Below are positions 1,286 through 7,063 of a DNA stretch of 64,000 nt, in pieces. Under the pieces are notes generated by a model that searched no databases, was not told the origin of the DNA, and saw only the letters and a list, made by a program, of their open reading frames with translations. The stretch comes from an uncultured Actinomycetota bacterium. GTDB taxonomy: Bacteria > Actinomycetota > Actinomycetes > Mycobacteriales > Mycobacteriaceae. How positions within the stretch are numbered: position 1 is the stretch's first letter; each line of letters opens with the position of its first letter. Where the stretch lies: NCBI GenBank assembly GCA_963799495.1, contig CAWCXH010000004.1, forward strand, positions 67,232 to 131,231, read 5' to 3'. Both the position numbers and the translations under genes were made by a program.

Positions 1286-1819
1286 ATGACCGTCAAAGCG
1301 GTACTCGCCCTGCTGTGCGCCGGCGGGGCGGTCATCGGAATGCCGGCCGCCAACGCCGACAACAGGCGGCTCAACGAGAGCGTCGTCGTCAACGTGTACA
1401 CCGTGCAACACAAGGCTGGCTGTACCACTGAGATCAAGATCAACCCCAAGCTTCGTCTTGCTGCCCAGTGGCACACCAACGACGTGCTGAACAACCGCGC
1501 GCTGGACGGTGATATCGGTTCGGACGGGTCGACGGTCGCCGATCGCGCGCGCAACGCCGGCTACGCCGGGGCCGTGGCCGAGACGGTGGCGATCAACCCG
1601 GCGCTGGCCATCAGCGGTGTCGAGTTGATCAACCAGTGGTACTTCCGGCCCGACTACTACGCGATTATGGCGGACTGCTCCAACATCGACATCGGTGTGT
1701 GGTCGGAGAGCGTGCTCGACCGCACCGTCGTGGTCGCGGTCTACGGCAAGGGTGACGGCGCGCCGCAGGTTCCGTCGTCCATCCGGGACTTCGGCCAGGT
1801 TCCTGGGTGGACGCCCTAG
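1286..1819 (+). CDS. Secreted CAP/SCP-domain protein
   Basis: ATG at 1286, signal-peptide-like N-terminus, LRLAAQWHT..D, GDIGSDGS....RA..AGY, W.....IMADC...DIGV pattern typical of CAP domains. Confidence 0.7.
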   Translation: MTVKAVLALLCAGGAVIGMPAANADNRRLNESVVVNVYTVQHKAGCTTEIKINPKLRLAAQWHTNDVLNNRALDGDIGSDGSTVADRARNAGYAGAVAETVAINPALAISGVELINQWYFRPDYYAIMADCSNIDIGVWSESVLDRTVVVAVYGKGDGAPQVPSSIRDFGQVPGWTP

Positions 1820-1840
1820 CCCGTTAGTCCGACCCTTTGA

Positions 1841-2740
1841 CTAAAAGCCAAGCCGACCAAGCTGCTTGGGGTCGCGCTGCCAGTTCTTGGCGATCTTGAC
1901 ATGCAGGTCGAGGTACACCTTGGTGCCGAGCAGCTTCTCGATCTGGGTGCGCGCCGCGGTTCCCACCTCACGCAGCCTGGCGCCGCCCTTGCCGATGACG
2001 ATGCCCTTCTGGCTGGGCCGTTCGACGAACAGGTTGGCGTGTACGTCGATCAGATCGTCGCGGCCTTCCCGCGGGCTGACCTCCTCGATGACCACGGCCA
2101 ACGAGTGCGGTAACTCATCGCGCACGCCTTCCAGTGCGGCCTCGCGGATCAGCTCGGCCATCAGCACTTCCTCGGGCTCGTCGGTGAGCTCGCCGTCCGG
2201 GTAGAACGCCGGGCCGGGTGGCAGCTGGGCGGCCAGCACATCGATCAGGACGTCGACGTTGTCGCCGGTGGTCGCCGACACCGGGACGATCTCGATGTCC
2301 GGCCCGACCAGCTCGCTGACCGCCACCAGTTGAGCGGCGACGCGATCCTTGGGCACCTTGTCGATCTTGGTGACGACCGCCACCGCCGTGGTGTTGGGGG
2401 CCACGGTGCGAATCTGGTGGACGATCCACCGGTCCCCCGGCCCGATGGCCTCGTCGGCCGGGATGCACAGCCCGATGATGTCAACCTCGGAGTAGGTGTC
2501 CTTGACGAGATCGTTGAGCCGCTGGCCCAGTAGGGTGCGGGGGCGGTGCAGCCCTGGGGTGTCGACGAGGATGATCTGAAAGTCGTCGCGGTGCACGATG
2601 CCGCGGATGGTGTGGCGGGTGGTCTGCGGGCGGCTGGACGTGATCGCCACTTTCGCACCGACCAGCGCGTTGGTCAGCGTCGACTTGCCGGTGTTCGGCC
2701 TGCCGACGAAACAGACGAAGCCCGAGCGGAATTCACCCAT
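1841..2740 (-). CDS. era: GTPase Era
   Basis: GRPNTGKST, QTTRH, DTPG, TKID motifs and C-terminal KH domain (SQKGIVIGKGG). Confidence 0.97.
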   Translation of the reverse strand: MGEFRSGFVCFVGRPNTGKSTLTNALVGAKVAITSSRPQTTRHTIRGIVHRDDFQIILVDTPGLHRPRTLLGQRLNDLVKDTYSEVDIIGLCIPADEAIGPGDRWIVHQIRTVAPNTTAVAVVTKIDKVPKDRVAAQLVAVSELVGPDIEIVPVSATTGDNVDVLIDVLAAQLPPGPAFYPDGELTDEPEEVLMAELIREAALEGVRDELPHSLAVVIEEVSPREGRDDLIDVHANLFVERPSQKGIVIGKGGARLREVGTAARTQIEKLLGTKVYLDLHVKIAKNWQRDPKQLGRLGF

Positions 2741-2800
2741 GGCTGACTCTCGCCGAACGTGCAATCACCGCGAAATTTCGGCCGATTTTTCGCAGTGGCT

Positions 2801-3118
2801 TCACGTTGGGTGTCCCGCGCGGTCGGTGACGACGATCTTGGCTTCACTCGAAAGCTCCTGCACCGCGGCCACACCGGCGTCGTCGGACGACCCGCCGACC
2901 AGCACCGCGGCCTCCAGGTCGGTCGCGCCGCTGGACACGGCGGCGGCCACCGCGGCCTGCAACGCGGTCAACCGCAGCGCTTCAAGCCCAACGGGCGCAC
3001 CTGCGTAGGTGCGTCCGTCGAGATCGCGCACCGCGGCCCCGCTGGCCGTCTCGGCCCGCGCCATCGCGCCGCGGGCCAGCACCACCAGCTTGGCGTCCTC
3101 GGCGTCAAGTTCAGTCAT
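2801..3118 (-). CDS. Cytidine deaminase-like small protein (Rv2365c-like)
   Basis: [28 protein letters not shown]; conserved position between the hemolysin-like gene and era. Confidence 0.8.
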
Positions 3119-4397
3119 CGTGGTCCTTCCGCTCGGTCGGGCTGACCAGGACGGTGCCGATCCGCACTCGGCCGCGATGGTCGGGCCCGCCTTCGGCACG
3201 CAGCCGCAACCCGTCCCAGGTCACCTCGGCGCCCGGCAACGGCACGCGGCCCAGCTCGAAGGCGACCAGTCCGCCGACCGTGTCGACGTCGAGGTCCTCG
3301 TCGAACTCGATGTCGTACAGCTCGCCGAGGTCCTCGATGGATAACCGCGCGGACACCCGAAACTGCTTGTCGCCCAAATCTTCCACGGGCACCACCTCGT
3401 CGGCGTCGTACTCGTCGACGATCTCGCCGACGATCTCCTCCAGCACGTCCTCAATGGTCACCAGGCCCGCGATGGCGCCGTACTCGTCGACCAGCAGCGC
3501 CATGTGGTTGCGGTTGCGCTGCATCTCGCGCAACAGCGCGTCCAGCGGCTTGGAGTCCGGCACGAACACTGCCGGGCGCATGACCTCGGACACCGTCGTG
3601 TCGCGCCCGCCGGTGGTGGAGTAGTACGTCTGCTGGACAAGGTCTTTGAGGTAGACCACGCCGACGACGTCGTCGACGTTCTCACCGATGACCGGGATGC
3701 GGGAATGCCCGCTGCGAACCGCCAATGACGTCGCTTGCCCTGCGGTCTTGTCGCTTTCGATCCACACCATCTCGGTGCGCGGCACCATCACCTCACGGGC
3801 CGGGGTGTCGCCCAGTTCGAACACCGACTGGATCATCCGGCGCTCGTCGTCGGCGACCACGCCGCGCTGCTGGGCCAGGTCGACGACCTCCCGAAGCTCG
3901 ATCTCCGACGCGAACGGGCCGTTGCGGAAACCGCGACCGGGTGTCAGCGCGTTGCCGAGCAGAATCAGCAGCCGGCTGATCGGGGTGAGCAGCACCGAAA
4001 TCGCCTGCAGCGGCAAGGCCGTCACCAGCGCGATCGAGTAGGCATGCTGACGGCCGAGGGTGCGCGGGCCGACGCCGATCGCCACGAAGCTGATCACCAC
4101 CATAATGGCGGCAGCGGCGAACAACCCCCAGTTCCGGGGCAGATCCTCGTACAGGTAGGCCACCAGCAGTACCGTCGCCGCCGTCTCACAGGTGATCCGC
4201 AGCAGCACAATCAGATTGACGTACCGCGGCCGCTCGGCCATCACCCGGGCCAGCCGCACGGCACCGGGGCGCTCGTCGCGCACCAACTCTTCGACCCGGG
4301 CCATGGATACGGTGCTGATGGCGGCGTCGATCGCCGCGAACAGACCGCCGCAACCGATGAGCGCGATCGCGCCGAGCAGTGGGGCGATACCGGTCAC
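3111..4397 (-). CDS. Hemolysin-family CNNM/CBS/CorC membrane protein (Rv2366c-like)
   Basis: Hydrophobic N-terminus, [46 protein letters not shown]; GTG overlaps the ybeY stop. Confidence 0.92.
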
Positions 4398-4930
4398 GGC
4401 TCGTCGAAGTGTCGCGACTTGTCCAGCAGGCGCCGATCCTTCTCGGTCTGGCGGTCCTGGTGGTATGCCTCGACCTGTTCGGCCACCCACTCCTCGAGCA
4501 GTTGACGCTGCAGGGCGAACATCTCTTTTTCCTCATCCGGCTCGGCGTGGTCGTAGCCGAGCAGGTGCAGCACACCGTGCACGGTCAGCATCGCGAGTTC
4601 CTGGCCCAGCGAGTGTCCGGCCACGGCGGCCTGCTCGGCGGCGAACTCGGGGCACAACACGATGTCGCCGAGCATCGACGGTCCCGGCTCGGGCGCGTCC
4701 GGCCGGCCGCCCGGTTCGAGTTCGTCCATCGGGAAGCTCATCACGTCGGTCGGACCGGGCAGATCCATCCAGCGCATGTGCAGGTCGGCCATCGCCGCGG
4801 TGTCGAGCAGCACCATCGAAAGTTCCGCCGCGGGATGCACTTTCATCTTCGCGATGACGAATCGGGCGACGCTGACGAGTTCGGACTCGGAGACGTCGAT
4901 GCCCGACTCGTTGGACACCTCAATGCTCAT
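4394..4930 (-). CDS. ybeY: rRNA maturation endoribonuclease YbeY
   Basis: [25 protein letters not shown] (H3XH5XH). Confidence 0.96.
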
Positions 4931-4942
4931 GATCTGGCCACG

Positions 4943-7063
4943 CTACCGTCGGGGACGGCTGCCGGTGGCGCGCCGTTGCGCCCGGTTCATCAGTCCGGGC
5001 TCCTCCGCCTTTTCGTAAGCGTCCACGATGTCGGAAACCAGCCGATGCCGCACGACGTCTGCACTGGTGAGTTCGGAGACGTGGATGTCGTCGATGCCGT
5101 CGAGAATCTGCACCGCCGCACGCAGGCCCGAGGTCGCGCCGCCGGGTAGATCCACCTGCGTGACGTCGCCGGTGACGACGATCTTCGAGCCGAAGCCGAG
5201 TCGGGTGAGGAACATCTTCATCTGCTCGGCGGTGGTGTTCTGCGCCTCGTCGAGGATGATGAACGCGTCGTTGAGGGTGTTGTGCGTGAGCAGGAAATCC
5301 TCTGTGACATACAGCGAGTCCGCAGCCGCCACCTGGATACACACCGCTTCCTCGGTACCCGCGGGCTCGATGCGGTCGATATAACGCCTCGGCTGACCGC
5401 CGCCGGTCGCGCTGTACTTCGCGGCCTTGCGGGCGAGCCGGAACGGGACAACGCCCTCCGGCAGTCGGATGTCGAGGATGTTTGCGTCCGATCGGTGATA
5501 GACCTCTCGGCCACGCGCCGGTCCCGGTTTCCACCCCTCCGCCTTCCTGGTGCGCAGGTATACGACACCGCCAAGGGACTGGACCAGGAACACCACGCCG
5601 TCACGCAGTCGATCAGAGACGGTCGTGAACTGGATGCGGCACGTCCGGCCCTGTTGCGCAACCGGTCCACCATCGGAGTCGAGGAGACCCTGCAGGACTG
5701 CCAGCCGGACATCCGCCGAATTGAGGAGATACACCTCGGGGATGAATCTTGTTCTCGACTTGGTGCCTGACAACCCGAGCCGGCGCATTACACCGGTGAC
5801 CGGGTTTTCGATCGTGATGACTTCACCGGGACACGTGACCCGGTTGAGCACGTAGTCCACCTCGGCCTTCCGTCGGACCTCGATGCCAGGAATCAGCCGT
5901 TCGAGGGATTCGGCCAGTTCAGAATCGGTTGTCGCGAAACTCGGTGTGGCTCGGCGTGAAAAACATCCATCGCCCAGCAGCAGACCGAGCGCGTAGGGAT
6001 CCAGAGGCACCGACCGTGTTTGGACACTCACTGGTGCGCTGAGCAGCGGCAACTCGTAGCGGTGGTAGTGCGCCGCGCGGAGGTTGCCAATCATTTCTTT
6101 TGTCTGGAGCACACGCGCCGGCTTCCCACGACGCCGATCAGCGCGGGTGTATACCGACCAGAGGTGGTCACCGGACGCCAGCGTCGACGAGCCGTCCTGC
6201 GTGTGGACCCGATAGATCTCCTTGAATCCCTGAGGATAGACACCCAGGACTTCTGTCGGATGTCCATCCGAGCCGATGACGAAATCCCCGACCCGCAGTG
6301 CACCGATGGGCCGGAAACCGTCGGGGGTCAACACCTTCGTGAACACAGGTTGCGCCCGTCCGCGCATATACGCCAGCGGCGCAACCTCGATTACCCCGGC
6401 GCTCATCAGTTTTGGGATCAGCTCGGGGTCCATCATGTCGTGCAGCGCGTCGTACAGCGGCCGCAGATACGGATCGATCTTCTCGCTCAGCGTGCCGGGC
6501 AGAAAGCCAAGGCGCTCACCGGCTTCCACCGCCGGCCTGGTGAGGATGATCCGGGTGACCTGCTTGGTCTGTAACGCGTTGACGGCCTTGGCCATTGCCA
6601 GGTACGTCTTGCCGGTGCCGGCCGGCCCGATGCTGAAGACGATGGTGTGGGCGTCGATGGCGTCGACGTAGCGTTTCTGGTTGAGTGTCTTGGGCCGGAT
6701 CGTCTTGCCGCGCCGCGACAAAATGTCCAGCGTGAGCACCTCGGCGGGTGACTCGCCCTCGGTGCCGGTCAGCATGGCGACGCTGTGGCGCACCACTTCC
6801 GGGGTCAGCGGTTGACCGTTGGCCACGATCGCGATGAGTTCGGAAACGACTCGTTCGGCCAGTGCGACATCGGCCGGCTCGCCGGACAGGGTCAGCGCGT
6901 TGCCGCGCACATGCAGATCGGCGGCCAGGGTGCGCTCGAGAGCACGCAGATTCTCGTCGGCGGAACCCAGCAGGCCCATGACGAGGTCGGGCGGAACATT
7001 GATGCTGCTGCGGACCAGCGATGTCGCGGCCGACGAGTCAGCGTTTGTCTCGCGGGGCGTCAC
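4943..7063 (-). CDS. phoH: PhoH family ATPase precursor containing an intein (347 aa after splicing)
   Basis: GPAGTGKTY Walker [16 protein letters not shown], then MRGR/[intein]/[14 protein letters not shown]; 706 aa total minus the 359-aa insert. Confidence 0.95.
5279..6355 (-). mobile_element. Intein (class 3 signature) with LAGLIDADG homing endonuclease in phoH
   Basis: Starts [13 protein letters not shown]; block B GDHLW; LAGLIDADG motifs [10 protein letters not shown] and [10 protein letters not shown]; block F AVCIQV; ends LLTHN before +1 Thr. Confidence 0.95.

Follow-up and report, generated by a model that had tools for sequence, protein, structure and literature searches.

Class 3 inteins are defined by the absence of an N-terminal nucleophile and by three co-varying residues, Trp at B:12, Cys at F:4 and Thr at G:5 (the WCT triplet), usually followed by Ser or Thr at position +1 (Tori et al. 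2010, PMC2807308). Several PhoH inteins are already on record: those of Mycobacterium fortuitum (OBK00716) and M. xenopi (EID13626) are aligned as class 3 in Fig. 6a of Kelley et al. (2018, Nat Commun, PMC6195587), M. smegmatis is said to possess one (Woods et al. 2020, mBio, PMC7360933), and PhoH is listed among the frequent intein hosts of bacteria, its 21 cases coming from Actinobacteria and Deinococcus-Thermus (Novikova et al. 2016, PMC4760082). The stretch of DNA analysed here, referred to below as the window, comprises 64,000 nucleotides from an uncultured Actinomycetota bacterium of the Mycobacteriaceae (assembly GCA_963799495.1, contig CAWCXH010000004.1, positions 67,232 to 131,231 of the forward strand), and it contains a phoH gene interrupted by a 359-residue insert. 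This insert is very probably an orthologous copy of a class 3 LAGLIDADG intein that occupies the MRGR/T site of PhoH (the slash marks the junction here and below) in many Mycobacteriaceae. The PhoH intein is already known as a kind and, very probably, as an allele, and the present copy is an ordinary, typical orthologue.

Translation of the locus confirms to the base the insert that the original prediction had placed within the MRGR/TL motif of PhoH. The element is 1077 nt long, remains in frame without stop codons, ends in DFLLTHN and corresponds to residues 237-595 of the precursor. It lies within the PhoH ATPase core, between Walker A and Walker B, and divides the Pfam PhoH match (PF02562, 1.5e-89) into two flanking stretches; the predicted spliced product is 347 residues long (236 + 111). 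In 28 empty alleles retrieved from congeners the protein reads LAYMRGR/TLNDAFI and the DNA is continuous across the junction, so the insert represents a true insertion and not a chance arrangement. The joined flanks in the window, ATGCGCGGACGG/ACCCTCAACGAC, match those given earlier, an example of empty-site DNA from a congener is CTTGCCTATATGCGCGGCCGG/ACCCTCAACGACGCCTTCATC, and the predicted target in intein-less phoH lies around ATGCGNGGNCGN/ACNCTNAAYGAY.

The motifs that had been noticed in the insert, namely Ala1, GDHLW (intein residues 62-66), AVCIQV (337-342), the terminal THN (357-359), the +1 Thr and two LAGLIDADG motifs in a frame free of stops, are all present at the spacing described. 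Their conservation was followed in an alignment of 72 automatically extracted orthologous copies and in a second one of 80 sequences, which includes 60 viral relatives with 33-59 % identity. Across the 72 copies, Ala1, Asp63, His64, Leu65, Trp66, Cys339, Thr357, His358 and Asn359 are invariant, none of the copies carries a stop codon and 56 are exactly 359 residues long. The broader alignment retains 20 invariant columns; those in the splicing domain are two glycines, Ile340, His64, Trp66, Cys339, Thr357, His358 and Asn359, and the remaining ones fall in the endonuclease domain, including the Gly and Asp positions of the LAGLIDADG motifs. Every sequence hallmark of class 3 is therefore present and invariant among the orthologues and phage relatives, and the corresponding mechanism is deduced from these residues. 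The endonuclease, expected from the outset to be intact, does appear so: two motifs are kept, stops are absent and the domain is under purifying selection.

The search of the insert against profile models, proposed as a check, returns Pfam LAGLIDADG_3 (1e-11), with Hint models appearing only below threshold. The NCBIfam matches are confined to the intein portions of intein-containing DnaB, GyrA and RecA models. In the PDB sequence search, the N-terminal splicing region matches gp41-1 as well as class 3 inteins of DnaB. The central part matches PI-SceI, whose endonuclease aligns with intein residues 120-272 (E 1.5e-9). The top match of that search, 6riz, is discounted: it is an engineered gp41-1 with grafted WCT residues (PMC7664689) and no natural relative, and for this reason it is not used for class assignment. 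Structure prediction with AlphaFold yields a poor model when only actinobacterial orthologues, 71-86 % identical to the query, are supplied (predicted local distance difference test, pLDDT, 64); after the addition of 60 viral relatives the pLDDT rises to 93, with a predicted template modelling score of 0.91. Upon submission of the whole model to Foldseek, PI-SceI (E 1e-18, query-normalised template modelling score, TMq, 0.70-0.74) and other endonuclease-bearing inteins are recovered, with a probability of 1.00 for PI-SceI, MchDnaB1, gp41-1 and Msm DnaBi1. The HINT part of the model superposes on MchDnaB1 (6riy, root-mean-square deviation, rmsd, 2.6 Å) and on Msm DnaBi1 (6bs8), and the central domain is similar in fold to I-DmoI, I-Tsp061I and the endonuclease domain of PI-SceI. 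Among predicted viral structures, phage helicases and terminases that contain inteins score best (TMq up to 0.88). Collectively, sequence and predicted fold give good support to the class assignment.

Table 1. Features of the interrupted phoH gene, in window coordinates, with the evidence for each.
Feature	Position	Strand	Evidence
phoH precursor open reading frame (ORF), 706 residues plus stop codon	4943-7063	minus	ORF list; Pfam PhoH
N-extein, 236 residues, Walker A GPAGTGKT, C-terminal end ...APLAYMRGR	6356-7063	minus	translation; empty alleles run straight into TLND
Intein, 359 residues, HINT splicing domain split by LAGLIDADG endonuclease domain	5279-6355	minus	translation; Pfam; PDB matches; AlphaFold; Foldseek
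Ala1 (block A position 1), non-nucleophilic	6353-6355	minus	GCG codon; Ala in 72/72 orthologues
Block B, S61-G-D-H64-L-W66 (His64 = B:10, Trp66 = B:12)	6158-6175	minus	both invariant in 72/72 and in the 80-sequence alignment
LAGLIDADG endonuclease domain, roughly intein residues 101-320	5396-6055	minus	Pfam LAGLIDADG_3; PI-SceI match; fold matches; dN/dS
LAGLIDADG motif 1, residues 123-132 (LGLLLGDG 123-130), acidic Asp129	5960-5989	minus	Asp129 in 69/72; Gly124 and Gly130 in 72/72
LAGLIDADG motif 2, residues 221-230 (LQGLLDSDG 221-229), acidic Asp228	5666-5695	minus	Asp226 and Asp228 in 72/72; invariant with phage relatives
Cys339 (block F:4), predicted initiating nucleophile	5339-5341	minus	TGT codon; 72/72 copies; invariant with phage relatives
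Block G: Thr357 (G:5), His358, Asn359 (cyclising Asn)	5279-5287	minus	each 72/72; invariant with phage relatives
C-extein, 111 residues, starts with +1 Thr (5276-5278), then Walker B IILDEAQN	4946-5278	minus	translation

The inteins with which the locus is most readily compared differ from it in distinct ways. M. smegmatis DnaBi1 and M. chimaera DnaB1 (6bs8, 6own, 6rix, 6riy) share with it Ala1, the His-x-Trp of block B, the Cys at F:4, the terminal Thr-His-Asn and a Ser or Thr at +1, and the HINT folds superpose with an rmsd of 2.5-2.7 Å over about 100 columns, although the identity within the splicing domain is only about 25-35 %. Both are mini-inteins devoid of endonuclease and lie in the DnaB P-loop after GK, whereas the PhoH intein is full-length and lies at MRGR/T. 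The DnaB intein of mycobacteriophage Bethlehem, the class 3 prototype, is like the PhoH intein a full-length member of class 3 that contains a LAGLIDADG domain, and both have Ser at B:7. PI-SceI, the VMA1 intein and the archetype of inteins bearing a LAGLIDADG endonuclease, has the same two-domain architecture, and the two agree in endonuclease alignment and whole-model fold; unlike the PhoH intein, it is a eukaryotic class 1 intein (Cys1, Cys+1) of 454 residues, with 16-18 % identity to the present sequence.

With respect to the published mycobacterial PhoH inteins, no substantive difference is found: the host protein, the bacterial family and the class 3 WCT signature are the same. M. peregrinum, M. 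porcinum and M. setense, which belong to the M. fortuitum complex, carry the same allele at the identical MRGR/T site with 80-82 % identity. The notion that PhoH would be an unusual host for a mycobacterial intein is wrong, because the three literature sources cited at the outset already describe it as a host and because the genome survey finds the same allele in at least 80 species genomes. A scan of species-representative genomes yields 80 loci, each of them interrupted at MRGR/T; this is the only PhoH insertion site across these loci, and the +1 residue is Thr in all 80. The occupied genes include those of Mycolicibacterium setense, wolinskyi, porcinum, peregrinum, brisbanense, rhodesiae, tusciae and vaccae, of Mycobacterium kyorinense, asiaticum, palustre and simulans and, outside the mycobacteria, of many Nocardia species and Gordonia effusa. 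The window intein is 71-86 % identical to the aligned species copies outside its own genome, and in the protein database, PhoH proteins of about 703-711 residues that reach 80-99 % identity over the insert number well over a hundred.

The survey of phoH occupancy that the original prediction had proposed shows a patchy distribution. A 189-residue joined-extein probe detects phoH in 117 of the 121 genomes from this genus, that of the window included; the gene is uninterrupted in about 90 of them, and in about 20 of the 116 others (about 17 %) it is split at the same residue by about 1.08 kb. In a sample of the family, 27 of 400 genomes give a match, distributed over 10 of 34 genera, and two of these 27 are distant inteins with 38 % identity in much larger reading frames. 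An intein both fixed and described at this site had been named beforehand as an outcome that would count against the original prediction; the intein is indeed described, but it is not fixed, its occupancy being sporadic.

If the insert acts as its residues predict, phoH would be translated as a 706-residue precursor with the intein in the ATPase core. The Cys339 thiol (F:4), aided by the variant block B (His64, Trp66), would attack the Arg236-Ala237 bond and give a thioester branched intermediate, from which the N-extein would be transferred to the hydroxyl of the +1 Thr. Cyclisation of Asn359, assisted by His358, would then release the intein, and an O-to-N acyl shift would give the native 347-residue PhoH (...MRGR-TLND...). 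PhoH ATPase activity would depend on this splicing. The freed intein would constitute a monomeric, double-motif LAGLIDADG endonuclease (Asp129, Asp228), expected to cleave phoH alleles that lack the intein and to propagate itself through gene conversion.

Certain observations weigh against this assignment or narrow it. When the WCT residues were introduced into the class 1 intein gp41-1, no class 3 intein capable of splicing resulted (PMC7664689), so the triplet alone is a marker rather than a proof of mechanism. For the present allele, the branched intermediate, the need for Cys339 and the cleavage of DNA are predictions from sequence. The identity with the published PhoH inteins rests on the relatives from the M. 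fortuitum complex, and not on a direct alignment to OBK00716 or EID13626. The ratios of nonsynonymous to synonymous substitution (dN/dS) relative to the window (Nei-Gojobori), about 0.06 for the N-terminal splicing part, 0.12 for the endonuclease and 0.07 for the C-terminal splicing part, are approximate because synonymous sites are near saturation (proportion of synonymous differences, pS, about 0.6-0.7). Finally, in a comparison restricted to species representatives, the intein pS is less than half of the extein pS in 0 of 3003 species pairs; since no pair has an intein much closer than its exteins, there is no direct sign of recent homing between species. The first two of these points would also suit an insert that is dead, leaving phoH as a pseudogene, or one that is not of class 3 and splices by direct +1 attack in the manner of class 2. 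Such an explanation is very improbable: the catalytic residues are strictly conserved, the frame has no stops, and across 78 species purifying selection acts strongly on the intein as well as on the two exteins. As to the class 2 route in particular, class 2 inteins are without the WCT triplet and those described attack with Cys+1 (PMC2807308), whereas the PhoH intein has the triplet and a +1 Thr.

A class 3 intein that splices at this site may still differ in how far it is mobile. It is possible, though clearly the less probable view, that the element splices yet no longer homes, being either a vertical passenger or a protein whose DNA-binding is kept for another purpose, with the patchiness arising from repeated loss. 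The pair comparison described above favours this explanation, as does the median synonymous divergence across species, which is greater for the intein than for the exteins (pS 0.68 vs 0.49), and several relatives have shortened endonuclease domains in open frames. On the other hand, the dN/dS of the endonuclease and the presence of both catalytic Asp residues in nearly all copies point to a maintained enzyme, and homing within species would escape detection in a comparison of species representatives only. A tree built from the extein DNA of 78 occupied and 28 empty alleles requires at least 18 changes of occupancy, compared with 26-28 when the labels are shuffled; the tree is quick, short and based on a single gene, and its empty alleles were chosen because they are close to the window. 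Inteins are rarely lost precisely, and for this reason some gains are an easier account of these changes than loss alone. Ongoing homing of the PhoH intein is plausible, and the picture is that of an old intein, kept under selection, with gains and losses.

Shortened orthologous PhoH inteins are seen in the relatives G232, G364, G357, G395, G252, G297 and G071 and at the loci L044, L056, L061 and L077. Some of them have only 336-353 residues or are without about residues 150-195 of the endonuclease domain, the matches of some covering only residues 1-150 and 196-359, yet the frame is open and the splicing blocks are kept. The short copies look like endonuclease decay in some lineages.

The viral relatives place the PhoH intein in a wider group. 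Among deposited phage genomes, this allele is not found; all 704 records have less than 60 % identity and fall in terminase or helicase genes, the relatives in deposited phages being distant (identity at most 41 %), and a query comprising PhoH together with the intein finds no deposited phage covering both, save for a weak match in Salicola phage SCTP-2. Of the phage copies, the terminase intein of Phrappuccino (41 %) and the helicase intein of Alice/Stubby (38 %) come closest, and many class 3 inteins of phage helicases and terminases start with AQPL..., as the PhoH intein does. In IMG/VR, 75 of 78 viral relatives (L116-L193) are inserted directly after the Walker A GK, with Thr or Ser at +1. 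These phage P-loop inteins follow GK, whereas the PhoH intein comes after GR, within another motif and in another ATPase; the local likeness G[KR]/T may, as a speculation, be how a P-loop intein reached the PhoH site.

The same junction does occur in viral PhoH. A 100-kb viral contig (L114, identical to L196; IMGVR_UViG_3300029915_000731, 1563-3281; GC 0.49-0.50) encodes a short phage PhoH interrupted at the identical MRGR/AQP...LTHN/TLNN site by a class 3 intein of 333 residues, 54-59 % identical to that of the window. A scan of viral sequences for the junction pattern adds three more phage PhoH genes (L197, L194 and L195) on contigs with a GC content of 0.33-0.37; the reading frame of L197 is complete and ends THN/T, and L194 and L195 run off their loci before the end of the intein. 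L114 and L197, the two with complete reading frames, both have the full Ala1/HLW/Cys/THN/T intein with a LAGLIDADG domain. Because their GC content lies between 0.33 and 0.50, the four contigs are not mycobacteriophages. An intein-interrupted phage PhoH was reported in 2012 for Campylobacter phage IBB_35, where site and class are not compared (PMC3322345). It is conceivable that this allele is carried by phage phoH genes.

The suggestion that the redox state of Cys or metals might switch splicing conditionally has its precedent in the class 3 intein DnaBi1, which is inhibited by H2O2 through its catalytic Cys, with a Cys118-Cys48 disulfide within the splicing domain acting as redox trap (PMC6195587), and which binds zinc through Cys118, the Val119 backbone and Tyr128 (PMC7360933). 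By analogy, a block of Cys339 by oxidants or zinc would keep PhoH in its inactive precursor form, and PhoH/YbeY function would thereby be tied to stress. In the PhoH intein, Cys339 and the invariant Tyr349 show the same ten-residue spacing as the DnaBi1 zinc site, a match by spacing and not by structural alignment, and zinc inhibition is accordingly a reasonable guess. The redox trap, in contrast, requires Cys48 in DnaBi1, and this residue has no counterpart here: Cys339 is the only Cys of the splicing domain, Cys131, Cys175 and Cys239 lie in the endonuclease domain and the exteins contain none, so the disulfide mechanism of the DnaBi1 type is unavailable. Furthermore, about 80 % of congeners lack the intein, so that any regulatory role is dispensable, and no experiment on any PhoH intein is found in the searchable literature. 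A conditional switch is unlikely.

The gene order at the locus is dnaJ-rsmE-phoH-ybeY-corC, which is a conserved one, the neighbours being an RsmE-type methyltransferase and DnaJ on one side and YbeY, immediately downstream of phoH, and a CNNM/CBS/CorC protein on the other. This order identifies the host protein as the PhoH/YbeZ-type partner of YbeY. The ybeY frame (window 4394-4930, minus strand) begins 13 nt past the phoH stop codon, and the CNNM/CBS/CorC frame (window 3111-4490, minus strand) overlaps the end of ybeY by about 97 nt as listed, both start positions being those of a mechanical ORF list; the arrangement fits a tightly packed phoH-ybeY-corC operon. The GC content increases from the intein (0.629; 5279-6355) to the phoH exteins (0.658; 4946-5278 and 6356-7063) and to the whole window (0.671).

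Other inteins are seen in the same genome. A DnaB gene (L003, G000:C18:141537-143358), cut by the contig end, has an insert that begins with Ala1 directly behind the P-loop, ARPGVGK/ALALDTPLPTPTGW..., and whose block B contains HQW; it is a class 3 intein of the DnaBi1 type, and with the PhoH intein it brings the class 3 inteins of this genome to at least two. The recA gene (L002, G000:C25:128534-132052), which lies outside the window, apparently has two inteins in one reading frame, both with LAGLIDADG motifs; one ends VMVHN/SPETTTGG, and the other lies at KVVKNK/CLAEGT...VVVHN/CSPPFKQ.

As a discovery the locus carries little weight, and its use is mainly practical. The annotation is corrected, in that the mature PhoH has 347 residues and not 706. 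The locus also provides a further intact, full-length class 3 intein with endonuclease, whereas those class 3 inteins for which a solved structure was found are either mini-inteins or an engineered variant of gp41-1. A more far-reaching scheme, in which Cys339 and Tyr349 form a zinc- or oxidant-sensitive brake that holds PhoH/YbeZ inactive and the same-site phage phoH inteins serve as a reservoir for Actinobacteria, is improbable; if true, it would make the PhoH-YbeY module, which serves RNA and ribosome quality control, responsive to stress in those mycobacteria, a minority, that have the intein.

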